From assembly GCA_037447605.1 (NCBI GenBank), contig CM074806.1:1054001-1118000 (forward strand): a DNA stretch of 64,000 bases. Reading direction: 5' to 3'. The notes under the pieces were generated by a model. That model saw nothing but the letters and a program-made list of their open reading frames with translations, was not told the origin of the DNA and did not search any database. A program made the position numbers and the translations under genes. Shown here in pieces: positions 25,165 to 42,181 of this stretch (its first letter is position 1; every line of letters begins with the position of its first letter). This stretch comes from Zygnema circumcarinatum SAG 698-1b. Lineage: Eukaryota; Plantae; Zygnematophyceae.

Positions 25165-25758
25165 GGAAAATGATACAGGCGCCCCACTTTTTGGATATCC
25201 GCGCCCCCTTTGGGGAAAAGAACTGTACTTTCATGTTGGCTAATCACGCCCCCCCTCCATTGGATCTTTCGGGAGGAGAGATCTTGTAGACAATCGGACC
25301 CCGCGCCTCGCGCGCAGGATCCGACCGTGCACCGACGTACGGCGCCGCGCATCGCGGCGCGGCCCGCGAGATGCGGCGAGCATGGGGGACCGGAAGCAGG
25401 GATGTCCAATGGAAGACTGCCACGTGGCAACCTCTGACCCAACCATTGGACATCCCNNNNNNNNNNGGGATGTCCAATGGTTGGGTCAGAGGTTGCCACG
25501 TGGCAGTCTTCCATTGGACATCCCTGCTTCCGGTCCCCCATGCTCGCCGCATCTCGCGGGCCGCGCCGCGATGCGCGGCGCCGTACGTCGGTGCACGGTC
25601 GGATCCTGCGCGCGAGGCGCGGGGTCCGATTGTCTACAAGATCTCTCCTCCCGAAAGATCCAATGGAGGGGGGGCGTGATTAGCCAACATGAAAGTACAG
25701 TTCTTTTCCCCAAAGGGGGCGCGGATATCCAAAAAGTGGGGCGCCTGTATCATTTTCC
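25165..25758. mobile_element. Foldback Mutator-family MITE, variant A (spans an N gap); 8-bp TSD TAAATATT
   Basis: Begins GGAAAATGATACAGGCGCCCCACTTTTTGGATATCC and ends with its reverse complement. TAAATATT at 25157-25164 and 25759-25766. Confidence 0.8.
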
Positions 25759-25767
25759 TAAATATTA

Positions 25768-27773
25768 GGAAAATGATACAGGCGCCCCACTTTTTGGATA
25801 TCCTTGCCCCTTTTCGGGAAAATTTGTACTTTCATTTTGGCTAATCTCGCCCCCCCTCTCCCTTTGTTTTTTTTTTCTCGTCCCACACATCAACGCAATT
25901 TCCTCAAACACGTTCGAATAGAGAGAGCAAAGCATAGAAGGGAGAGAGAGAGAGAAAGAGAGAGGACAAGAGAAAGAGAGAAGCAAAGCAAAGCAAGCCA
26001 ACCATTACATCATCATAGAGCTTCACATATACAATTGAGCATAATGTGAAATGAAATTAATAAAAGTAAGTAAAAAAAATATGTCAGTGAATCGTTATAC
26101 ATGTGTTGTACTGCTTAATACTTATATTTGCGGTTGCCTTTTAATGGTTAAGCACATAGGTGGGTACCGAGAGGTCCTAAGATTGAATCTTGCTAAAGGC
26201 AGTATGAATATAGGTGGGTACCGAGAGGTCCTAAGATCGAATCCTGCTGAAACTTTGATGAGGGTAGTATATGAACTTTGTTGAGGGTAGTATAAACTTT
26301 GCTGAGGGTAGGTTGTTACATAATGCATTTCAATGGAAACAAAGTGTAAACAAAGAATCAAAAGTTCTTAAAGAAAGAAAAGGTTTATTAAGCGTTTGCA
26401 CATTTGGAGCTTACAATCCTGAGTACAAAACTACAACGCTGAGCCAGCCTGCCAGAACATTCCTGAAAAAGAAGGAGGGGGGGAGAGGGGAGGGGAGGGG
26501 AGAGGAGGGAGGGAGGGGAGAAGAGGGAGAGAGGGAGGGAGGAAGGAGGAGAAACTCGCAAAAGAGTGTATATTTTAAATATAGGAGAAATTGCCTAAAT
26601 CACTTTGAACTCGACAGCCCATCCTTTGGACTTGATGTTAAGCCATAAAACAATCTATGACTAGGGAAAAGTATTGTTTTTCTTTTAATTAGTGCAAGTT
26701 CTTGAGTTGTGGCCTGGTTGCTTACAATTGGAACATTTGTTACCTTCAACATACTCAGAATAGCTCTTGTCCCAGTTGATTGCCAAACTACGTGCGCCAG
26801 TAGGTCAACCTTGTTTCTTTGTAACTAGGTGGGGGTTTTGCAACTGCAGTGGTTCAGTAACCAAAAGGTACTAAGGACCAACGTTGTTGAAGAATCATTT
26901 GCAAACAACCTACTTGTTAATGCCTTGATTGTCATTGCCTATCGTAATAATGATGATCCAATTTCAACAATTGTGGCTGTTTCTTGGACTTGGATAAAAA
27001 ATCAGCAAGGAGCGAGGAGCTTTAAAACCTTGTCATAAAGGAGCGACATCAGCAACGACCGTGTCGACATTGGCGGATGTGTCAGTGTTATCCGTGTATA
27101 GACACATCGGCATATCCAGGACATGTGGTCGCGCTTGTCGGGTGTCATCTCGTCGTCTTTGAGTGATAGGGCGTCCACTGTCATCGGTATCACCCTGACA
27201 CGTCGTTGTATGGCAAGCGACCTTAGCTCGGCGTTGGCACTCCATGAGGGCAGCGAGTTGGTGCCAATGAGTATCGTGGCCCTGATTGTGGCACTGAATG
27301 GGGGCACGGACGTCGGATCACCTCCAGTCGTGACCTTGATGTAGTGGCTGTTGACTTTACCAACGCCCAAGTCTACATCACCGCATGTGGCAACTCTGAC
27401 GGATGACAGCATCTGCACGACACTTGTCTCGACCCTGGACGTGCTCCTGGACATGATACCGCTGACATCTGCGGGTCTACAACAGCCCGCCAGCAGCACC
27501 CTCAGGCACGACATGAGCGTTGACTTACCATTGCCGCCAAGCTCGTACAGCATGGTGAAGTAAGCCGAGTCTTGTGGGTCCAACAACGCGTTGCCTATCA
27601 GCCACATCAGACACTGGTACTCCTTGTCTTGCACAAACAACCTCGACAAGTACAGGGACACCGAGCAGACGTCATCGAACACCCAGCTGACAGGGTGGTA
27701 GTCGTTGTCGATTGTCAGCCTTGAGAGTCCCGTCTTGAGCATGTGTGTACGGCTGTCGTCGTACACTTCTGCC
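25768..27773. mobile_element. Partial duplicate of the left part of the Mutator element (allelic or redundant contig), ending at a gap
   Basis: Near-identical to 29208-31223 except for a 10-bp deletion (ggacagtatg) near 26250. Contains the 3' part of the D5-like ORF (27002-27773). Confidence 0.8.
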
Positions 27774-27783
27774 NNNNNNNNNN

Positions 27784-28665
27784 AACATCAAGTCCAAAGG
27801 ATGGGCTGTCGAGTTCAAAGTGATTTAGGCAATTTCTCCTATATTTAAAATATACACTCTTTTGCGAGTTTCTCCTCCTTCCTCCCTCCCTCTCTCCCTC
27901 TTCTCCCCTCCCTCCCTCCTCTCCCCTCCCCTCCCCTCTCCCCCCCTCCTTCTTTTTCAGGAATGTTCTGGCAGGCTGGCTCAGCGTTGTAGTTTTGTAC
28001 TCAGGATTGTAAGCTCCAAATGTGCAAACGCTTAATAAACCTTTTCTTTCTTTAAGAACTTTTGATTCTTTGTTTACACTTTGTTTCCATTGAAATGCAT
28101 TATGTAACAACCTACCCTCAGCAAAGTTTATACTACCCTCAACAAAGTTCATATACTACCCTCATCAAAGTTCATACTGTCCTCAGCAGGATTCGATCTT
28201 AGGACCTCTCGGTACCCACCTATATTCATACTGCCTTTAGCAAGATTCAATCTTAGGACCTCTCGGTACCCACCTATGTGCTTAACCATTAAAAGGCAAC
28301 CGCAAATATAAGTATTAAGCAGTACAACACATGTATAACGATTCACTGACATATTTTTTTTACTTACTTTTATTAATTTCATTTCACATTATGCTCAATT
28401 GTATATGTGAAGCTCTATGATGATGTAATGGTTGGCTTGCTTTGCTTTGCTTCTCTCTTTCTCTTGTCCTCTCTCTTTCTCTCTCTCTCTCCCTTCTATG
28501 CTTTGCTCTCTCTATTCGAACGTGTTTGAGGAAATTGCGTTGATGTGTGGGACGAGAAAAAAAAAACAAAGGGAGAGGGGGGGCGAGATTAGCCAAAATG
28601 AAAGTACAAATTTTCCCGAAAAGGGGCAAGGATATCCAAAAAGTGGGGCGCCTGTATCATTTTCC
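27784..28665 (-). repeat. Inverted copy of the Mutator left end
   Basis: Reverse complement of ~29208-30089; starts immediately after an N gap. Confidence 0.85.
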
Positions 28666-28674
28666 TAATATTTA

Positions 28675-29198
28675 GGAAAATGATACAGGCGCCCCACTTT
28701 TTGGATATCCGCGCCCCCTTTCGGGAAAAAACTGTACTTTCATGTTGGCTAATCACGCCCCCCCTCCCCTTGGATCTTTCGGGAGGAGAGATCTTGTAGA
28801 CAATCGGACCCCGCGCCTCGCGCGCAGGATCCGACCGTGCTCCGACGTACGGCACCGCCCATCGCGGCGTGGCCGCGAGATGCGGCGAGCATGGGGGACC
28901 GGAAGCAGGGATGTCCAATGGAAGACTGCCACGTGGCAACCTCTGACCCAACCATTGGACATCCCTGCTTCCGGTCCCCCATGCTCGCCGCATCTCGCGG
29001 CCACGCCGCGATGGGCGGTGCCGTACGTCGGAGCACGGTCGGATCCTGCGCGCGAGGCGCGGGGTCCGATTGTCTACAAGATCTCTCCTCCCGAAAGATC
29101 CAAGGGGAGGGGGGGCGTGATTAGCCAACATGAAAGTACAGTTTTTTCCCGAAAGGGGGCGCGGATATCCAAAAAGTGGGGCGCCTGTATCATTTTCC
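28675..29198. mobile_element. Foldback Mutator-family MITE, variant B: 247-bp arms around a 30-bp loop
   Basis: Arms at 28675-28921 and 28952-29198 are reverse complements. The loop contains TGCCACGTGGCA. Arms share the TIR and the gatctttcgggaggagagatctt block with the right end of the large element. Confidence 0.85.
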
Positions 29199-29574
29199 TA
29201 AATATTAGGAAAATGATACAGGCGCCCCACTTTTTGGATATCCTTGCCCCTTTTCGGGAAAATTTGTACTTTCATTTTGGCTAATCTCGCCCCCCCTCTC
29301 CCTTTGTTTTTTTTTTCTCGTCCCACACATCAACGCAATTTCCTCAAACACGTTCGAATAGAGAGAGCAAAGCATAGAAGGGAGAGAGAGAGAGAAAGAG
29401 AGAGGACAAGAGAAAGAGAGAAGCAAAGCAAAGCAAGCCAACCATTACATCATCATAGAGCTTCACATATACAATTGAGCATAATGTGAAATGAAATTAA
29501 TAAAAGTAAGTAAAAAAAATATGTCAGTGAATCGTTATACATGTGTTGTACTGCTTAATACTTATATTTGCGGT

Positions 29575-29760
29575 TGCCTTTTAATGGTTAAGCACATAGG
29601 TGGGTACCGAGAGGTCCTAAGATTGAATCTTGCTAAAGGCAGTATGAATATAGGTGGGTACCGAGAGGTCCTAAGATCGAATCCTGCTGAGGACAGTATG
29701 AACTTTGATGAGGGTAGTATATGAACTTTGTTGAGGGTAGTATAAACTTTGCTGAGGGTA
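29575..29760 (+). repeat. Internal tandem repeats of the MULE (54 bp x2, ~23 bp x3); first unit is tRNA-like
   Basis: ataggtgggtaccgagaggtcctaagat(t/c)gaatc occurs twice; tat(g/a)aactttg.tgagggtag occurs three times. Confidence 0.7.
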
Positions 29761-30134
29761 GGTTGTTACATAATGCATTTCAATGGAAACAAAGTGTAAA
29801 CAAAGAATCAAAAGTTCTTAAAGAAAGAAAAGGTTTATTAAGCGTTTGCACATTTGGAGCTTACAATCCTGAGTACAAAACTACAACGCTGAGCCAGCCT
29901 GCCAGAACATTCCTGAAAAAGAAGGAGGGGGGGAGAGGGGAGGGGAGGGGAGAGGAGGGAGGGAGGGGAGAAGAGGGAGAGAGGGAGGGAGGAAGGAGGA
30001 GAAACTCGCAAAAGAGTGTATATTTTAAATATAGGAGAAATTGCCTAAATCACTTTGAACTCGACAGCCCATCCTTTGGACTTGATGTTAAGCCATAAAA
30101 CAATCTATGACTAGGGAAAAGTATTGTTTTTCTT

Positions 30135-30478
30135 TTAATTAGTGCAAGTTCTTGAGTTGTGGCCTGGTTGCTTACAATTGGAACATTTGTTACCTTCAAC
30201 ATACTCAGAATAGCTCTTGTCCCAGTTGATTGCCAAACTACGTGCGCCAGTAGGTCAACCTTGTTTCTTTGTAACTAGGTGGGGGTTTTGCAACTGCAGT
30301 GGTTCAGTAACCAAAAGGTACTAAGGACCAACGTTGTTGAAGAATCATTTGCAAACAACCTACTTGTTAATGCCTTGATTGTCATTGCCTATCGTAATAA
30401 TGATGATCCAATTTCAACAATTGTGGCTGTTTCTTGGACTTGGATAAAAAATCAGCAAGGAGCGAGGAGCTTTAAAAC
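30135..30478 (-). pseudogene. MULE transposase C-terminal remnant with CCHC zinc knuckle
   Basis: Minus frame reads LQNPHLVTKKQG*PTGARS...EYVEGNKCSNCKQPGHNSRTCTN*: a KGRP-like motif plus the CxxCxxxGHNxRTC knuckle typical of Mutator transposase ends, with an in-frame stop. Confidence 0.8.
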
Positions 30479-31642
30479 CTTGTCATAAAGGAGCGACATC
30501 AGCAACGACCGTGTCGACATTGGCGGATGTGTCAGTGTTATCCGTGTATAGACACATCGGCATATCCAGGACATGTGGTCGCGCTTGTCGGGTGTCATCT
30601 CGTCGTCTTTGAGTGATAGGGCGTCCACTGTCATCGGTATCACCCTGACACGTCGTTGTATGGCAAGCGACCTTAGCTCGGCGTTGGCACTCCATGAGGG
30701 CAGCGAGTTGGTGCCAATGAGTATCGTGGCCCTGATTGTGGCACTGAATGGGGGCACGGACGTCGGATCACCTCCAGTCGTGACCTTGATGTAGTGGCTG
30801 TTGACTTTACCAACGCCCAAGTCTACATCACCGCATGTGGCAACTCTGACGGATGACAGCATCTGCACGACACTTGTCTCGACCCTGGACGTGCTCCTGG
30901 ACATGATACCGCTGACATCTGCGGGTCTACAACAGCCCGCCAGCAGCACCCTCAGGCACGACATGAGCGTTGACTTACCATTGCCGCCAAGCTCGTACAG
31001 CATGGTGAAGTAAGCCGAGTCTTGTGGGTCCAACAACGCGTTGCCTATCAGCCACATCAGACACTGGTACTCCTTGTCTTGCACAAACAACCTCGACAAG
31101 TACAGGGACACCGAGCAGACGTCATCGAACACCCAGCTGACAGGGTGGTAGTCGTTGTCGATTGTCAGCCTTGAGAGTCCCGTCTTGAGCATGTGTGTAC
31201 GGCTGTCGTCGTACACTTCTGCCTGCTCGAACAACAGCTTGTCGTCTGCTAGTGTAACCTTATACCTAACGCTGCCAACACAGACACTGATTGGCAGTGA
31301 CGACACCACTAGCGCGTTCTTCTCCAGTAGTCTTAGATATGGCCTGACTGCCGTCGTGTAGTTGACCGTGGCATTACTGGCACCCACGGCGCGTGTCAGC
31401 TCCACTTGTGCCTCCTCCGACACAATATTAGACCACTCATTGAGCGATGACAAGTACAACAGGATGTCGCCTTTATACTTGACGACATTGCCCAGTTCCA
31501 CAAGCCTGCCCAGGGCGTTAGACTCATTTGTAGCCCGTCTCAGTACTGTCGACAAGCCACTTGACACTTCAGATGTGTCCATGATGATAGTTGCAGAGGG
31601 GGCAGCTTCACAGCGAAGGAGTGGCAAGTCAGACACCACCAT
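30452..31642 (-). CDS. D5-like superfamily-3 helicase, virus-like, intronless, probably C-terminally truncated
   Basis: 396-aa ORF with Walker A FTMLYELGGNGKST, Walker B-like VATCGD, motif C ILIGTNSLP and arginine finger AIQRRVRVIPM. The last ~8 codons read into MULE DNA. Confidence 0.8.
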   Translation of the reverse strand: MVVSDLPLLRCEAAPSATIIMDTSEVSSGLSTVLRRATNESNALGRLVELGNVVKYKGDILLYLSSLNEWSNIVSEEAQVELTRAVGASNATVNYTTAVRPYLRLLEKNALVVSSLPISVCVGSVRYKVTLADDKLLFEQAEVYDDSRTHMLKTGLSRLTIDNDYHPVSWVFDDVCSVSLYLSRLFVQDKEYQCLMWLIGNALLDPQDSAYFTMLYELGGNGKSTLMSCLRVLLAGCCRPADVSGIMSRSTSRVETSVVQMLSSVRVATCGDVDLGVGKVNSHYIKVTTGGDPTSVPPFSATIRATILIGTNSLPSWSANAELRSLAIQRRVRVIPMTVDALSLKDDEMTPDKRDHMSWICRCVYTRITLTHPPMSTRSLLMSLLYDKVLKLLAPC

Positions 31643-31653
31643 CCAGCACCGTC

Positions 31654-32202
31654 ATGGAGGCCGTAGACACCGCAGTGAGACAAGGGTGGAGACTAGAGTG
31701 GGTAGGACAGACTGGCGACATGTGTGTTCTGGTAAGACTAATGAAGGAGGGCCTTGACGACATGTACATACGGCTGACAGTGCCTGTAGACACGCCGTCA
31801 ACATGCGTCGACTACGGTGTCGTGTCCAGGCCCGAGTCAGACGACCAGGGTGTTGATGTCGCCTTAGTGTGGCACTGTCAGCCGTGGCTGAGACTCAGGC
31901 GTAACGCCGCCATACACGGCCTGACTACTGGGTCAGAGCCAAGGTGTGGCTACGTCAAGTGGCAGCCACAGACAATGACACGGTGTATCATGGGCTACGA
32001 CTTTGAGACTAACAGCCTGGGACTACACAAGGGTAGCCTGCCACCAGCGTCAAGGGACGTCGTCTGTGCCACGTTGTGGTGTACGTGCGGGGTGACGGCG
32101 TCATGGCACACGATGGGCACTAGTAGCCAGTTGGTCAAAGTGGGGGACACTCAATCAAATGGTGGTTTAACCACCATATTGCTGATTGATGTTTATGAGT
32201 AA
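31654..32202 (+). pseudogene. N-terminal fragment of a family-B DNA polymerase (start of 3'-5' exonuclease domain), virus-like
   Basis: RCIMGYDFETNSLGLHKGSLPPASRDVVCATLW resembles the ExoI block of RNA-primed PolB (LxFDIE..G.FP....D.V). Truncated near 32140, where MULE sequence resumes. Confidence 0.6.
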
Positions 32203-33480
32203 GATTTTTTCGCCTTTGTCCAAGATCGTTGAAATACGATGCTTACAAGGAGCCCCCAAGTTGAAGTAAATACTCCACTATAAAGCCCTAATGTTGTCGC
32301 TTTCAACTTTGAAACTAGCTTATGCAACCCTTCTAAATGCAGCCTTTCTAAATACGGTTACTTGTAATAAAGACAAATAAAAAACTTCTCAGTTTTAATT
32401 ATTTGCTTAAGCTCGACAAACTGGATTTAGAGCATCAGATTTAGCTGTTGGAAAACTGTAAACAAATTAAGAGTTAGAATTTAGATGTACCGCTTTAGGA
32501 GATGATGGTTTCCCTCCCCACGAGATGTGGAACCCATTCCCAATTGCATGTTCTTGTCGACAAAACATCTAACAAACTTATCCCAATGCTCTTGCTTCTA
32601 CACGTAATGAAAGGCAAACGTCCATCCCCGCGAGCCAAAGTAACTCTCATCGCTACCCAGTTGCCATAATAAGTTTCTTCTATAGTGGAATATAGGCACG
32701 CATTCCACATCTTCATAAATGTCTCAAACTCATTATTGTCCTCGAAATGCTTCTTAGTGTTTGCAAGCACGTTTTTATTAACGTGCCATACACACAAAAT
32801 ATTCATAGTGTCAGGAAAGACTTCTGAGATTGCGTTCATCAACGCTAATTCACGATCAGTAGCGACAAACTTAGGTATTACTATAACACGGAATGCTTAC
32901 AAGGCCCAAACGTATGCATCCTTTGTTTCTTCCCGTAAAATATTAAAAATCGAATAAGTGGCAATGATTCTAATAATGTTCAGCAAAGGCATTCCAAATT
33001 AGACATTGTTGTACTCATTCGCAAGCTTGGCTGAGTCTCGATGAGTAAAGAACAAACTTGAAACAGCACCGTCGATCCCAAAACTAACTTCAAAGATGAA
33101 ATTACCAGCGCTTAGGGTTTCAATTAAGGCTATAATGTGGGTTCAACCAACCAAGAGATTTGTCCTAAATAGAGCAATGTCATTGTACACTACTCTTTTG
33201 GTCATATGTTGGTTCTCGTACTGGTTTTGGAAAGTAAACATTATGGATGGAATGCTGGCGCCATTTTGTGCATCTCTCGAACATATTCCTTCTCGCGAGT
33301 ATTCAAGCGCCTTTTCTTGGCATATCCACTGGAAATAACGTGGTTGTGCTCTTCAATGATGGATTTTACAGCCCATATGTTCTTCTTCTTAGAAAACGTC
33401 GATCTTGAAAGGGCAATTTTTCAAGCGGCTAGAGGTATGCCTGTTCTTTCCGGTCTCTTCTTGACCTCTATCCCTTCCCC
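32150..33480 (-). pseudogene. MULE (FAR1/Hop-like) transposase, 5' part, frameshifted with stops
   Basis: Fragments SSRLKNCPF..IWAVKSIIEEHNH (FAR1/WRKY-like), FVATDRELALMNAISEVFPDTMNILCVWHVNKNV (DDE core with CxxH) and a frameshifted SGVFTSTWG.PCKHRI. Confidence 0.88.
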
Positions 33481-33734
33481 TTGACCTTTATTCAGGGGAA
33501 GGGAGGGGAAGGGTGGGGCGGGGAGGGGAGGGGAGAGCACGGGCGGGGAGGGGAGAAGATCTCTCCTCCCGAAAGATCAGGGGGGGACCGAGATTAGCCA
33601 AAATGAAAGTATAAAATTTTCCCGAAGGGGGGCGAGGATATCCAAAAAGTGGGGCGACTGTATCATTTTCCAAATATGATCGTAAATAGCTAATTTATGG
33701 CTCAAATTGAGATTAATATTATTATGAAATAATA

Positions 33735-34422
33735 GGGTAGTGTTAAATCCACCCCTTTTTTGGATCGACACACCGCTTTTCCACCGGGCAGATTTTAGAA
33801 AAGTTCTAAAACTGAAAATGCTTTTTTCACACCTTTTTAGAATCGATACAACACTTTTTCCCGTCGGGCAGATTTTATTTTACAAAAAAAAAGGTCAAAA
33901 CGCGAGTGCGTCTGCCCTGCCACACGATGTACTGTACTGTACTTGCATTACCGTACATTCCTGTACGGTGATGTACGGCATCCTTTCGGTTCCGTTCAGT
34001 TAAAGCCCGGTCTCGGCTCTCTACTCGCCAGTACAGTACCAGGATCTTCCGCTCCGAGCGGATTCGGGCAGGCCCTAACATATTTTTGTCTCTCAAAAAA
34101 ACCAGGGGGCGGGATATCCAAAAAGGTGGGAAGGGTTATCATTCTCCGATCACGAAAGTGGGTTGATCTGGCGGTTAAGAAGTGCATCCCGAGATCCATG
34201 ATGGTACTTGTACCGGTCTGTTTCTGAATTTGGTGGAATTAACTGATCCTTTTTTCATTTAAATAGGTTGTCGGGCCTTGACCTTTAACCAATGGAAATT
34301 CGCCACGTGTACACATTTGTACACGTGGCGTGTCTCAATTCACGTTCCTGGTATCGGTCGAGTAGAGGTCCGGACCGGGCTTTCACTCAACGGAACCGAA
34401 AGGATGCCGTACAGTGCCGTAC
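33735..34422. mobile_element. Degenerate Mutator-type foldback/MITE relics
   Basis: TIR-like ends at 33735 and 34106-34147 (ggatatccaaaaaggtggg...tatcattctcc). ~60-bp inverted repeat at 33963-34027 / 34359-34422. 13-bp hairpin at 34301-34330. Confidence 0.55.
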
Positions 34423-34439
34423 CAAGAGTACTTTTCCGC

Positions 34440-34565
34440 TCGTACTGTAGCTTCTATCTTTTGCGCTTAGGTCCTTTCACTCTGTGACCAGTCCCTCGTG
34501 GTTCCACATGTTGCTTTTGTCCATGTACATTTGATGGCCTTGCCATCGTGAGTTCAATGCCATTT
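34440..34565 (-). repeat. Unclassified dispersed repeat, copy 2
   Basis: ttttgcgcttaggtccttt...ctcgtggttc..catg..ttgtccatgtacat.tga.ggc..gccatcgt.ag.tcaat is shared with 62970-63080. Confidence 0.75.
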
Positions 34566-34850
34566 TCTTCTTTTCTGGAGAAATATTTGGGAACCGAACC
34601 AAACTAAAGGTGGTCAGGAACAAAATTGCACCTCCTTTCAAAGTTGTTGACTTTGACATTATCTTTTTTCTTTTTCATTATCCATGGAGAAGGCTTTTCT
34701 AAAATAGGAGAAAATTATTGATCGAGGCGTGGCTTTAGGCATTATTCAAAAAATCTGGTTCCTGGTTTTCTTACGAAGGTAATATAGCCACTGCTTCCTT
34801 GGTGCTAGTAAGCTTCCCAAGTAAGCTAGGGGAAACCCTTTTTACTTTCT

Positions 34851-35269: not shown

Positions 35270-36432
35270 ATGGGGGGCTCCTCGGGGGAGAGGTCAGACG
35301 GGAATGGGGAGAAAGAGAGTGGAGCCACGGACTCCGGGAAGTATGTGCGTTACTCTAATGATCAGGTGGAGGCGCTGGAACGCGTCTATCATGAGTGTCC
35401 CAAGCCGAGCTCGATGCGGCGCCAGCAACTCATCAAGGAGTGTCCGATTCTGGCAAACATTGAGCCCAAGCAGATCAAAGTCTGGTTTCAGAATAGAAGG
35501 TGACGACGGAGGGTGGATGTGGGGGGTTGATTGGGAAGACGAGGGTGGGGAGGGAACAATGTCTCTGGATGTCCTTGGAATGGATTGAACTGCCCTGGCC
35601 TCACTTAGGTTTTCTTGAGATGTTGGCGGCGTGAGGTTGCCCGGTATGGCCAGTTAGTGGGACTGGTTTCTCTGTGCCGTGAGGCCGGCGAGCTGTTACA
35701 GTGACATCATCGACAGCTTGTAACGCTTTCCTTGATTGTTTGGAGTTGAGCCTCTTATGATGAGCAATATGACAACTTATGAGCAGAAGAAAAAACCTAC
35801 TTATACAGACTGAGATGGAATTGGTCAACGTTGGTGATCAGTCTATTTGAAGATTGCAAATGTGCTGAAGTGGTATCGCCTGCGACTGCGAGTCCAGAGT
35901 GGTTGTGATAGGCTACTTTGAGCTCAGTCGCAGTGAACATGGTCAACGGATGCATTTGAAGGTCAATGCTGAACTCGTAGGCTGACAGTTCTATTCACGT
36001 GTGCCAGGTGTCGGGAGAGGCAACGGATGGAGTCCAACCGTCTACAGACAATGAATTCAAAGCTGACGGCTTTGAATAAGCTTCTGGTGGAAGAAAATGA
36101 CCTTTCAACGAAGAAAATTTCACAGTTGACTATGGAGAACGCTATCTTGCGGCAACGTCTTGCAAAATATGAGAGCCTTCTGAAATTGGAACCAGATTCT
36201 GCTGCAAAGGCTGTTACTACAGTACCCGAACATGTGAGACCTCACATCATAAAATCTTGCGTCGTGTTTTCCTGTTGTGTATTTATTGTTAGTAGGATGT
36301 TGGATGTCGACTTGATTATTCCACTCAAAATGTTGCGGAATTCGTTAAAATCGAGGAGTTTGATCCGATATAATCGCTTCTTGAAGGGTCTTCATTTGCC
36401 ATTGATGCCCAGAATGTCTGCTCCTTGATGCA

Positions 36433-36464
<32 letters not shown>

Positions 36465-39400
36465 AGCAGCAACAACTTGTACAGGCACAGGCTCAGGCGA
36501 CAGCTCAAGCACAAGCACAACAGGGGATAAAGTTTGACCTCCCACTTCTGATGGCACACGCTAATCATGCACTCAACCGTCAGGCTGAAGGTGTCAGTCA
36601 AGCTCTTCATCAAGCTCCCAAACCCTTCGGCTTCCATCATGACGGAACAACTGGTGTTCCGACCTCTCTTGACAACAGCCAAGAATCTGCTGTGACAACC
36701 AATTTACAAGGAGGAGACGACGTTAGACCCGAGACGAGTACATCTGGGTAAGGACGCAATGGCCGGGGAAGTTCGCGAGCATGAGACCTAGTTGGATATT
36801 CGATTTGTATCGTTAATTCTGCCGCAGAATTAGTTCCAACGTGAATGAGTTTTTTGTGCGCTCGCTTGAACAGAAGGGAATATTGCCCTGGTGAATGCAG
36901 GCTTTTTGCTATTGCGGAGGAGATATTGGCTGAATTCCTAGCAAAAGCTTCCGGAACAGCCATCGATTTTGTCGAGTTGCCTGGAATGAAGGTAAAGCCA
37001 ATTTCGTGCCTCATTTGTGAATGTAAAGTATTCTTTTCAACAATTTTGAGGTTGTAAACTTCCAACTTGCTTCTAGGGCTTAGTGAGGTTATAGCCTATG
37101 CAGAGTTCCTAATAGGAGCCAAAACGGCAGCTGAATTTAGTTGGAGTTGCTGCGCTTTAACAGCAGCTAACTTTCCTGTTATGCTTTGCTCATTGAGATA
37201 TCGTAGATGGGTAACGTAGATAATTATTGGAACTTCCTTTACAATTGTGCAGGCAGGAAATGATTTCATCGGCAGAGTGACAGTTTCTTATGGTGGCACT
37301 GGAGTTGCAGCCCGAGCAGCAGGAGTGGTTCCACTTGAACCATTGAGGGTAAGTAGTTTGAAACAAGAATCACGAGTGCAAGCTCCCATAAAGGTCTGGT
37401 AACTGATTTTCATAGACTTCCTCTGCCATCTAAAAAGCTTGTCCTTCTCTACCGTTGTCTGGGATCTAAACTCTCAGTCACTGGACCAATAAGTGTGTGT
37501 CTCTCACAGGTAACGGAGCTACTAAAGGATCGAATGTCATGGTTACGAGATTGTCGTCGTTGTGATGCCCTTGGTGGTTTTTGCACCGCCAATGGAGGGA
37601 CCGTGGAGCTCATATATACTCAGGTTTGTCCATCCCCATAAAAAGTTCTTGATTGAGACGCTCTTTTGGGAGCGTGCGAGAAGTGAAGCTTTCCAACCAT
37701 AAGGATCTCCTCGTGATGTTCTCATGCATTGTCCAACACTTTTCTGCAGATGTATGCACCAACAACATTAGCACCTCCACGGGACTTCTGCACTTTGCGG
37801 TACACAACAGCGTTGGATGGTGGTAGAGTGGTGGTAAGTCAGCCTTGTTGCTACCCGCTTGAGAACATACCCACTTTAGTAGATGCTGTAAATAATCGGG
37901 CAATTGCAGGGCTCTGGTCCGGTGACAGGCAGTCAAAGAAATTTCAGGTTGATTATGCAACCAACATGTACTCATCCGGCAGTTTGATGACCTTTCGTTC
38001 TGCAGATTTGTGAGCGCTCTCTTAATAGTTCACATGGGGGTGCAACCATGCCAGCTGTCCCCTCCTTTGTACGAGCGGAGATGTTGCCAAGTGGATATCT
38101 GATTCGGCCTTGTGAAGGAGGCTGTCTGATCGTAGCAGTAGATCACATGGATCTGGAGGTTTGTCTCCCTTTTGCCCCACTCTTTGTCAGTCGGTAGTTT
38201 GAGACATCCTCATTTCAGACATGTTGTGAAGATTTACATTTGAGAATGCAGTCCGTTATGTGCTATCAGAGCGAAAGCTTTTTTCCCTGCTTTCTTATAG
38301 TTGGCCCATCGTCTGGAGGAATGTGGCAGCCATGGAGTGTTCCGGAAGTGCTTCGACCATTGTATGAATCTTCGGCTGCGTTGGCGCAAAGAGTTACTTT
38401 GGAGGTAAGGATCCCTTATGCTCATTTAAACAACATTGTTGTAGGTATCATCAATCAACATGTGTTCATTGATCCGTGGTAATATTTTTCGACATCAGGT
38501 CCTTCCTTAGCTCAAGTTTACTTCTGTTTCAATTCATGGCCGAGAAAAACCCCTTATGTCAGGAATGAAACAGGTAATGGATTCAGCAGGTCGGCCATTA
38601 GACAAACTTATGCACTCATGCTATAAACTTAGGTTAGTTTTTGCTTGACTTCTTCCAATATTTCGCATAAGTATGCCTTAGGATCTAACAAAACTAAGTT
38701 GAATTCCACTATTTATAATAGCCCTACACAATTTTTCAATAGCATTCTGCATTAATATTGAAAACATTTGTGCTGATTACCATGGGGGGGTGCTTGCAGG
38801 CCCTCAGATATCTCCGCCGCGTAGCGCAGGAAGCTGCGGGAGGAACAGGCGGAGCAGGAAGTGCTCAGCAATTGGCTGCTTGGAGGGCCATTGCTGAACG
38901 CATAGCAATGTATGCATTCCCTCCTTCTGTTGTCTCTCAGTTCGTTTGAATGCAGGCCCAAAGGATGTCAGTACTACCTCAATGCTAGTATCAATAGTAA
39001 GAATTCCCAGCACCATTCTCTCTTGCGAATCTCTCATCACTTCCTTCCATTCTTTTTTTTTTTTTTTTTTGTGCAGGGGTTTCAATGAAGCCGTGAATGG
39101 TTTCGCAGACGACAATTGGGTTTCGCTGCCCAGCGATGGCTTGGATGACGTAAGCGTTGCATCACGGGCTACATTACCGATGAAATCTCCCGGGCAGAGC
39201 GGATTAGTTCCGGACGGGCCCGGTCCAATTGGAGGAGGAGTACTTTGCGCTAAAGCTTCAATGCTTCTGCAGGTATGGCTATCACTTCAACTTCCAAACT
39301 CCCATTCGTGGTGAATAGCACTAACTGCCCCTTTTTTCCCTTCCATAGCACTGATGTATGTCCATCCTTTGCTTTTCCACCCCGTGAAGTTCGCCACGTT

Positions 39401-42181
39401 CTGAACTCCACTGTGTGGCTGCATGTATATGGGCAGAATGTGCCCCCTGCACTGCTCATCCGCTTCTTGAGAGACCATCGTTCAGAGTGGGCGGATGGCG
39501 ATATTGATGCAAATTCTGCAGCGGCTGTGCAAGCGAGCTTGGTGGGGAGGGCCGATGGCAGCAATGGGCAGGTCCCTCTGCCATTGGCATATGCCGTGGA
39601 TCAGGAGGAGGTGGGTCTTTTCCAACTGATTACATCTTTGGTAGAGGAGTGTGGTCGCTACTTTGGCCTCCAATTCGGCTTCACTATCGCTACATACTTT
39701 CTCAATTTGAAGTAGCTGGGGAGACATGGGACTTTGGAGCTAGTAGACTTAAGGTTTGCTTTTTCATTATTATGATTCGTAAAATTCTTCCTGAACTTGG
39801 ATGGACATATGATCTGGCTGCACTGAGGTAAATTATTTGGAATGAAAACGTGCTTTTGGTCTTTTTGAGGCTGGTCAATGTACGGTTAAAGATTAATTTT
39901 GTTCCAGATGATGGAACAGCACATGGATATTGATTAAAGGCCTTTTCAGAGGAGGCAACAGACTCCTAATGGTAATATCTGAACATTGGGAGGGAGGGCA
40001 TGGGACGGGGAAGGCAGTTCTTGGAGCTGGTGAAGCTTGAGGGGCATAGTCAGGAGCAAGATGGCAGCCTTATGCCGAGGGAAACCTTCCTCTTGCAGGT
40101 AACACATATTGAGTGAGGAAAGGAGACTCTGTCAGTGTAACCTATGTGTTTTTTATGTCCGTCCCTTTTTTCATTTTTACTTCTCTTTGCGTAGCAGTTG
40201 TGAGGGGTCAATTCATGCTATTGTGTTGTGGCGCAGTTATCTTCAAAATGTGGATGTTCCTTTTTTGTGTCGCTTTGTAGCTGTTAAATTCGTATGTGGA
40301 GGTCTTTAAGAAGCTGCATCTCTTTGAGTTAAAAGGCTGTACAACTTTTTGCGGTTCATCTCTCAGGCGAAGGAAGTGGCTTACGAGCTGCCGTGTAAAT
40401 AGATCGGCCAGTCACCTTAGAAGTGTATGCCTCATGTAAAAAAAAAAAAAAAACCCAAGGAATTTCTCTGTTTGCGAACTCAAAATGTTTGACCTGGGTT
40501 TCTTACCTTTTAATCCTCTCTTTGTTCTCTACTTCTGCAGCTCTGCAGCGGAGTAGATGAGACAGCTGTTGCGATGGCTCAGCTCGTGTTCGCTCCCGTG
40601 GATGCAGCCTCAACAGCAGATACCGTACCCCTCCTTCCTTCTGGGTTTCGAGTCATCCCTTTGGAATCCGGCCCTACAGTGAGAACAATTCTTCTTGTTC
40701 TTGTTCTTGTTCTTGTTCTTGTTCTTCTTGTTCTTGTTCTCCTTCTACTTCTTCTTCTTGTTCTTGTTCTTGTTCTTCTTCTTCTTCTTCTTCTTCTTCT
40801 TCTTCTTGTTGATCTTCTTTGAATCGTGTTTGTCTATTCAAGGGCTCTCCCCTGCCGGATGCTCTGCTGAAGTTCAAAGTCTTCTCAATGTATTGATATT
40901 TGGTTTCAATTTCTCCAGGAGAGGCCCGGGCAGCCGTCAGTGCGAACACTGGACCTCGCATCTGCATTGGAAGGGCAGTCAGAAGGAGGGAGACAGGGAG
41001 ACGCATCAGCTTCTAGGCTCCGTTCTGTGCTCACTATTGCCTTCCAATTCGCATATGAAGGACCCACAAGGGATGCTGTGGCAATAGTTGCGAGGCAATA
41101 TGTTCGTTCAGTGGTGGCCTCCGTGCAAAGGGTAGCTTTGGCCCTTGCTCCTTCACCACATAGTGTTGTGGACCATCCTGCCCTGACTACTAGCAATTCT
41201 GAGGCTATGATGGTCCTCTCTCACCGGGTCCTTCAGAGCTACAGGTTAGCAGCTTTCCTGAGCTGGATTGGTCAGTTTGGGACGTTAACCAGCTGCATTT
41301 CCTCTCGTTTTCATGATCATGCCTCTCTGCTTCGATCCCTTTGGCAGGTGTTAGCCATAGCATAGCAATAACATGTCACTGTTCCACCATTCCTACAGGC
41401 TGTTTTTGGGAATGGACCTTGTGCGGATAGACCCCTCTTTGAGCGGGGAAGCGGTCTTTAAGTCGTTCTGGGAATATGCAGACCCCATCATCTGTGTTGC
41501 CTGGAAGGTGAGGACAGAGAGCCCTATGACTGTCGCAGTAGGCAAATGCTTGAGAGGGTTGAATGGGCATGAAAGGAGCATCTAATGTCTGTTAAAAATG
41601 TGTTTCCAAGGTTGTGCATTGGATGGCAGTCGGCATGCTGCAATTGCTTTTGTTCCGAGAGGGTTTATGATTGCGGAGATATTGCAAAGTGACCTTCATG
41701 GATACAGTTCTGATTTTGAGCACTGACTTTTGAATGACTGGCAGATGTCTCCGGAGCTTTTGTTCGCTAACCAGGCTGGTCTTGCAATGCTGGAGACTTC
41801 GACAATGGGATTGGCTGAGATTCCTTGGGAGAAAACGTATAACGAAGAGGGAGCAAAGGCAGCGTATTCTGCACTTTCTCAGGTCATGCAGCAGGTGAGA
41901 AAGGAAAGGAAAGGCAACCGAGTTCTGAAACTTCTGTTCAGCTTTCCTCCAAGGAATCCAAACCAGCTTGATCTTGCTTGCAAGTGCGATATGTTTGGCT
42001 TACCCGTTTCCTCATTTGCTTCTGAGTGCAGGGCTATGCCTACCTTTCCCCAGGCATCCGAATATCTGCAACCGGTCGAGCTGCACGCTACGAACGGGGG
42101 GTAGCGTGGAAAGTGGTGGACGAGGAAGACAACCTCAAATTCATTGCGTGCATGCACATGCAGTGGTCGTTTGTGAGCTAA
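35270..42181 (+). CDS. C3HDZ: Class III HD-ZIP transcription factor (homeodomain, leucine zipper, START, HD-SAD, MEKHLA); multi-exon
   Basis: DSGKYVRYSNDQVEALERVYHECPKPSSMRRQQLIKECPILANIEPKQIKVWFQNRR|CRE; MYAPTTLAPPRDFCTLRY; GFNEAVNGFADD; RTLDLASALE; FANQAGLAMLET...QWSFVS*. Confidence 0.97.
36431..36475 (+). repeat. CAG/CAA repeat encoding 15 Gln
   Basis: (cag)4(caa)5(cag)4(caa)2 in a predicted coding exon. Confidence 0.85.
40689..40810. repeat. Intronic (TTC/TTG)n microsatellite
   Basis: ttcttg/ttc run directly after the donor at ~40679. Confidence 0.95.

Follow-up and report, generated by a model that had tools for sequence, protein, structure and literature searches.

The 64,000-nucleotide window analysed here (Zygnema circumcarinatum SAG 698-1b, contig CM074806.1, positions 1,054,001 to 1,118,000) contains a Mutator-like element (MULE) whose decayed transposase gene is interrupted by a fragment of virus-like DNA carrying parts of two replication genes. 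The element ends at 29208 and 33671. Its left terminal inverted repeat (TIR; 29208-29297, plus strand) and right TIR (33579-33671, minus strand) are 91% identical across 99 nt, with 74 of 79 aligned bases identical across their outer 80 nt. The flanking 8-bp target site duplication (TSD) has a left copy at 29200-29207 and a right copy at 33672-33679, both read on the plus strand and identical at seven of eight positions; MULE TSDs are 8-11 bp long. The transposase lies on the minus strand in two parts. The 5' part (32163-33480) matches PF10551 (MULE) with an E-value of 1.1e-10 and bears four frame switches and six stops between 20 landmarks. The 3' part (30137-30449), likewise broken, carries a KGRP-like motif and a CCHC knuckle, the latter with a weak zf-CCHC match below the cut-off (E 0.007). 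The FAR1-like, CxxH, PCKH and KGRP-like motifs were recognized by eye in the translations and have no Pfam match. The locus thus combines long TIRs at both ends, an 8-bp TSD and a MULE DDE transposase, albeit a decayed one, and the original prediction of TIRs of about 80 bp and a 7/8 TSD bounding an element with a split minus-strand transposase is borne out. The left arm of the element also contains short tandem duplications (29589-29761) with units of 54 nt and about 21-23 nt.

Between the two transposase parts lies a block of about 1.7 kb, comprising cargo and junction filler, which composition and a cargo-free relative place at 30450-32162. Its GC content is 0.55 against 0.39 in each transposase half, and none of 130 host windows (median 72, maximum 191) lies as far from the host in dinucleotide composition as the block, at a distance of 257. 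The cargo-free relative is a contig of sequencing run X1 that links 30449 to 32178 through 16 other letters; aligned by eye, these put the cargo limits near 30450 and 32162 and imply the loss of only some three host bases. It answers in the affirmative the earlier question whether cargo-free copies with a contiguous transposase exist, and it moves the limits of the GC-richer block, previously put at about 30480-32140. The left junction filler (30450-30482) contains 8- and 9-nt stretches, overlapping one another, that copy cargo sequence close by. The right junction filler (32142-32162) overlaps an inverted, fold-back copy of the adjoining transposase DNA (32147-32167), which gave the top score among 2950 positions tested. 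No duplication flanks the cargo at either side of the block.

The cargo spans the start codons of two divergent genes separated by a 71-bp spacer (31583-31653). On the minus strand, a D5-type superfamily 3 (SF3) helicase without a primase domain (30483-31582) has a complete N-terminus and lacks about its last 70 residues; its frame begins at 31582 and ends at a stop within the filler (30452-30454). For this open reading frame (ORF), HMMER detected 228 representatives at E <= 0.001 (best 5e-74), of which the full-length ones are mostly 430-500 aa long and likewise have no primase domain. The window helicase departs from this family at one near-invariant Walker A position. PHROG primase-helicase families also match (best E 1.5e-11), as do DUF5906 clusters (0.97), while Pfam gave no match for either the helicase or the polymerase fragment described below, and word-indexed protein searches and phmmer against the PDB gave nothing for either ORF. 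The predicted model of the helicase has a confidence (pLDDT) of 90.8, and its top Foldseek matches are the poxvirus D5/E5 proteins and the primase-helicases of Staphylococcus aureus pathogenicity islands (SaPI), with E-values of 2e-12 to 5e-12 and TM scores of 0.5-0.6; they share 12-16% identity with it and differ from the donor-family protein, which is about 440 aa long and has no primase domain. A FastTree phylogeny was built from 146 rows, namely the window helicase, its relative on metagenome contig L151, 119 of 150 listed hits of at least 240 aa and 25 phage-type ORFs, with no named eukaryotic virus among them. The window helicase falls inside a 119-row clade that is separate, with support of 100, from 27 phage-type rows, and phage-type matches among those listed are partial and mostly 20-33% identical. 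We therefore reject a bacterial prophage origin of the helicase.

On the plus strand, the ORF from 31654 to 32141 encodes the N-terminal fragment, about 165 codons long, of a family-B DNA polymerase (PolB). It aligns with the first quarter of a 720-aa relative (28% identity over 149 aa, E 5e-20; profile probability 98.9%), covers about residues 8-176 and stops after the Exo I region, so that the polymerase domain, residues 342-655 in the relative, is missing. A search of PHROGs gave no match for it. Homology thus upholds both of the gene assignments made from the letters alone, the D5-like helicase and the PolB fragment, and ordinary prophage genes, which would have spoken against them, are not the best match of the helicase. 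A PolB without its catalytic domain and a helicase without its C-terminal part are unlikely to work.

From what kind of element did this fragment come? In the 16 kb examined of L151, a 32-kb contig, PolB and helicase genes have the same divergent arrangement with one extra ORF between them, and an Rpb1-like gene and Pif1 are encoded in addition. Three contigs (L311, L318 and L319) of an assembly titled Streptomyces (G001) carry helicase, PolB, Rpb1-like, Rpb2-like, Pif1 and RNase H genes across 24.8 kb. The GC content of Streptomyces is about 70% and that of these contigs about 50%, from which we infer that they are probably contaminants. Across 42 PolB relatives at E <1e-44, the longest contig is 23-40 kb in 19 cases, shorter in 22 and an 18-Mb fungal contig in one; the recurrence of 23-40 kb suggests the unit size of the element, which is likely to be 25-40 kb. 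Eight of the 30 clusters checked, which were chosen partly for odd length, have an organism name. Seven are fungal (Rhizoclosmatium, Zopfochytrium, Blyttiomyces, Lobulomyces/Clydaea, Chytridiales, Gautieria and Ophiocordyceps) and one is a green alga (Cymbomonas). The end of L318 and the start of L311 have a 63-nt inverted stretch in common, compatible with an inverted repeat, and on L151 a T-run followed by an A-run recurs just 3' of several stop codons, perhaps as a termination signal for the RNA polymerase that the element encodes. In three other relatives, P0104 (Rhizoclosmatium), P0048 and P0019, the helicase is fused to PolB, an Rpb1 fragment or a NADAR domain; some of these fusions may be artefacts of gene models that run across adjacent genes of the element.

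The family shares with Nucleocytoviricota an RNA-primed PolB, a D5-type helicase and two large RNA polymerase subunits (L151, L311, L318 and L319). Its PolB matches PF00136 (E 4e-34); among sequences with a solved structure, archaeal PolB and Pol alpha come closest. By Foldseek, the PolB model resembles the polymerases of phages, haloviruses, nucleocytoplasmic large DNA viruses (NCLDV), baculoviruses and herpesviruses equally, at 10-18% identity. No capsid gene was found among 35 scanned ORFs (16 of L151, 19 of L318 and L319). In the Streptomyces-titled assembly, PF04451 (capsid) gave no match, with a control that was positive nowhere and an element that is possibly incomplete, and PF04665 (A32 packaging ATPase) gave none either, with a control positive in one of 14 and contigs that may be incomplete. 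A capping enzyme on L319 and a uracil-DNA glycosylase on L318, proposed from motifs, were dropped because neither Pfam nor the PDB supports them beyond a weak TFIIS ribbon match. The original prediction of viral cargo therefore stands insofar as a D5-type helicase and an RNA-primed-type PolB are virus-like; membership of Nucleocytoviricota does not follow, given the low PolB identity and the capsid and packaging ATPase that were not found. The donor belongs to a distinct, virus-like family whose gene content resembles that of a stripped-down large DNA virus, and we assign it to no named group.

The family is apparently undescribed; its other occurrences are in sequence data from fungi, algae and the environment. 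Searches of IMG/VR with the window helicase or Rpb1 as query found no family member; the PolB alignment retrieved 148 stretches, all distant partial matches, and the helicase alignments retrieved no family member among the matches listed. The literature searched, in which few subscription papers were covered, so that an account may be in print, yielded no description of the donor family or of a MULE with such cargo. A paper on Mycodnaviridae makes no mention of three of the fungal carriers.

Are the junctions real, and how often does the cargo occur? Of 24 sequencing runs under one organism code, six contain at least half of the words of the locus, and four (X1, X4, X6 and X7) were compared as contigs. 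The right cargo junction is spanned by contigs in X1, X4 and X6, from studies P1, P2 and P3, and the left in X1, X4, X6 and X7, the X1, X6 and X7 contigs being placed on an identical duplicate at 26908-27547. The insert is real and no chimera of the kind that, in the original prediction, junctions without read support would have revealed. X6 differs from the window by 10 letters and 12 gap letters across 1488 nt, and by 6 across 932 nt of the right arm, so that the insertion must be older than the divergence of the sampled material. The depth of the cargo contig is 74.7 against 59.3 for unique flank in X1 and 31.6 against 26 in X6, read depth being an imperfect proxy for copy number. The contigs of cargo (1476 nt) and right arm (928 nt) are unbranched and near single-copy depth, and no second copy with the same cargo junctions occurs among the contig matches listed. 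The cargo-bearing element looks single-copy.

A second helicase locus is represented by a 3.2-kb contig in X1 and X6 that is 87% identical to 30483-30809 (43 differences in 327 nt) and then diverges from the MULE. Its similarity is lost at 30483, next to the left filler. The four of these 43 differences that are listed are all transitions in that copy, C-to-T or G-to-A, and all fall at CG or CHG sites. This second locus suggests that the family has entered the streptophyte lineage more than once.

How did a piece of a virus-like element come to lie within a transposase gene? We consider it probable that a double-strand break in an already decayed MULE was patched with a 1.7-kb virus-like fragment, and that the product has not moved since. 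The 5' transposase has accumulated 10 lesions (four frame switches and six stops) in 1246 nt and the cargo ORFs none in 1584 nt, an asymmetry with P = 2.7e-4 under an even spread, which favours insertion into an element that was already dead. In the order of events that we envisage, the MULE would have inserted and then decayed; a DNA element of the PolB/D5/RNA-polymerase family would have been present in free form in the host cell or a close associate; and a break in the dead transposase gene would have been repaired by polymerase-theta-type end joining. Templated filler indicates polymerase theta. A random piece spanning the divergent helicase and PolB starts would have been stitched in at the cost of few host bases, leaving templated filler, and the repair product would then have been inherited and have remained immobile. 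There is precedent in rice, where foreign DNA captured at breaks is marked by filler and microhomology at its junctions (PMC12129026). The locus is a molecular fossil of contact with the PolB/D5/RNA-polymerase element family.

Several observations weigh against repair of a dead element. In two of the three backgrounds examined, about 4-5% of positions would by chance give a 9-nt match like the one in the left filler, and CpG depletion does not separate cargo (ratio 0.82) from transposase (0.84). The landmarks of the lesion count were picked by eye without a reference transposase, and an intron could mimic a frame switch. The same asymmetry is also expected if the parent transposase was already broken and a non-autonomous copy captured the cargo during movement. 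In X4, depth is 56-59 over 30803-32278 against 29-41 in neighbouring contigs, a 1.5-2x excess. Most of the 2855 contig pieces and 757 loose ends fall outside the matches listed, so that a further copy could be hidden, and no listed contig spans either TIR into unique flank.

Capture of the Pack-MULE type is the strongest competitor of repair, though we regard it as unlikely. Pack-MULEs, which Jiang et al. are said to have described in 2004 (as cited in PMC6431247), are reportedly MULEs carrying captured host gene fragments. Here a non-autonomous MULE mobilised in trans would have acquired the viral fragment by gap repair and could have spread it. The intact TIR ends and the TSD fit such a history, as does a miniature inverted-repeat transposable element (MITE) with the same TIRs and a perfect TSD, which indicates that the family was active later. 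Gap repair at transposition is also expected to leave filler junctions. The likeness to Pack-MULEs, MULE TIRs and a TSD enclosing captured gene fragments, ends at the cargo, which is foreign instead of a host gene, lies within a decayed transposase and shows no sign of a second copy; its source is a virus-like family, and no related host locus was seen other than one with 87% identity. Moreover, the 7/8 TSD and TIRs about 91-94% alike suggest that the element inserted before the cargo did, and the unbranched, near single-copy contigs among the matches listed offer no second copy with these junctions. The original prediction of a Pack-MULE spreading viral genes accordingly finds no backing here: the contig matches listed include no second copy with the same junctions, two of the three deep runs (X1 and X6) have near single-copy depth, and both cargo genes are truncated. 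Where it had left the choice between gap-repair capture and insertion into a dead element undecided, the lesion counts favour the dead element.

A more doubtful alternative, and to us quite improbable, is that the second helicase locus, a resident endogenous copy, rather than a free element served as template for the cargo. That locus exists in two runs and is 87% identical to 30483-30809, but 13% neutral divergence after copying should have broken the cargo frames, yet the frames are open, and the four listed differences look like decay of the other copy alone.

Slightly less credible again is integration of a whole element into the transposase gene through its own machinery, followed by trimming through deletions. 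Family relatives lie within fungal contigs of 136 kb, 203 kb and 18 Mb, which implies that the family does enter chromosomes. Here, in contrast, both ends of the block cut genes and bear filler, there is no flanking duplication, and no integrase family matched among the 16 ORFs of L151 or the 19 of L318 and L319. An assembly chimera, in which a host MULE was joined to DNA from a contaminating fungus or from its element, could draw on the misassembly nearby (N gaps, perfect duplicates) and on the mostly fungal named carriers. It is scarcely credible, given that three studies yielded runs in which both junctions are spanned at host-like depth and that one of these runs has polymorphisms of its own.

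What does repair of a dead MULE with such DNA mean beyond the locus? As a structure, the locus leads nowhere: the transposon is dead, apparently does not spread and contains only the stumps of two genes. Its value is that of a marker, a read-supported integration linking a streptophyte to a family found neither in IMG/VR nor in the literature searched. The range of large DNA viruses or virus-like replicons that reach streptophytes is, according to PMC4083422, an open question. We tentatively entertain a broader reading, which is plausible but falls short of probable: the cargo may be a fossil of undescribed, compact (25-40 kb), capsid-less DNA replicons that live in fungi and green algae and are equipped like giant viruses for replication and transcription, with an RNA-primed PolB, a D5 helicase and an RNA polymerase of their own. 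They would have entered the streptophyte lineage at least twice, so that plants might also support their replication or receive them from fungi. Together with the second locus and the relatives of 23-40 kb, the locus makes the capsid, extrachromosomal state and host range of the family testable questions.

Comparison with known systems places the locus among several without matching any of them. The NCLDV-like regions of Physcomitrium patens (PMC4083422) and the fungal fundsalphaviruses (PMC7017919) come closest in kind: they comprise large-DNA-virus-like replication genes, endogenous in a non-seed plant, with PolB, D5 and RNA polymerase subunits and no capsid gene found, and repeated independent insertions are proposed. 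The difference is that here a 1.7-kb piece lies inside a DNA transposon. Further, in the alignments of PMC4083422 the D5 and PolB rows of the moss are, as judged by eye, of canonical NCLDV types without the signature motifs of the donor family. Membership of the donor in the moss/fundsalphavirus group, which gene content had suggested, is not adopted on that reading. Fungal virus-like elements (VLEs), the cytoplasmic linear plasmids of yeasts and early-diverging fungi, are similarly capsid-less, measure tens of kb and have their own RNA polymerase and helicase; their PolB is protein-primed (PMC13348850), whereas the donor family pairs a PF00136-type PolB with a D5 helicase. The PF00136 match and nearest solved sequences of the family PolB speak against such a plasmid as donor. 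Ariadnavirales were rejected as well, since that group is reported to lack replication and transcription genes through loss.

Two further systems resemble the locus in its manner of assembly. Nuclear mitochondrial and plastid DNA insertions (NUMT/NUPT; PMC12129026) are likewise foreign DNA taken up at breaks, and their junctions show filler and microhomology, but here the source is a virus-like element, not organelle DNA. Teratorn, a piggyBac-herpesvirus fusion (PMC6431247), also joins a DNA transposon with large-DNA-virus replication genes; it is active, 41-182 kb long and has intact viral genes, in contrast to the dead element with two gene stumps described here.

The surroundings of the element are rich in repeats. 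The MITE with the same TIR family (28675-29198, 524 bp) has a perfect 8-bp TSD that lies 1 bp from the TSD of the element; it is almost perfectly palindromic, and its very high summed read depth suggests a large family. Partial duplicates of the left part of the element, direct at 25768-27773 and inverted at 27784-28665, sit beside N gaps (25457 and 27774) and differ from it by no mismatch and a single 10-nt gap. A contig fitting both duplicate sites has a depth in X1 of 69.3; the part that occurs only once reaches 74.7 and unique flank 59.3, which suggests one real copy. The repeated MITE and element copies within 25165-28665 are likely assembly artefacts caused by the palindromic MITE. Neither the MITE nor the partial duplicates had been mentioned in the original prediction. 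To the right of the element, further high-copy repeats occupy 33730-34570, among them an inverted pair (33963-34027 and 34359-34422) and a TIR-like end that has diverged (34104-34147). About 2.3 kb to the right of the element lies an HD-ZIP III-like gene (35973-42104), which encodes a polyglutamine tract in addition to bZIP-like and MEKHLA domains. HD-ZIP III genes with this domain order are a streptophyte feature, and the gene thus marks the host as a streptophyte.

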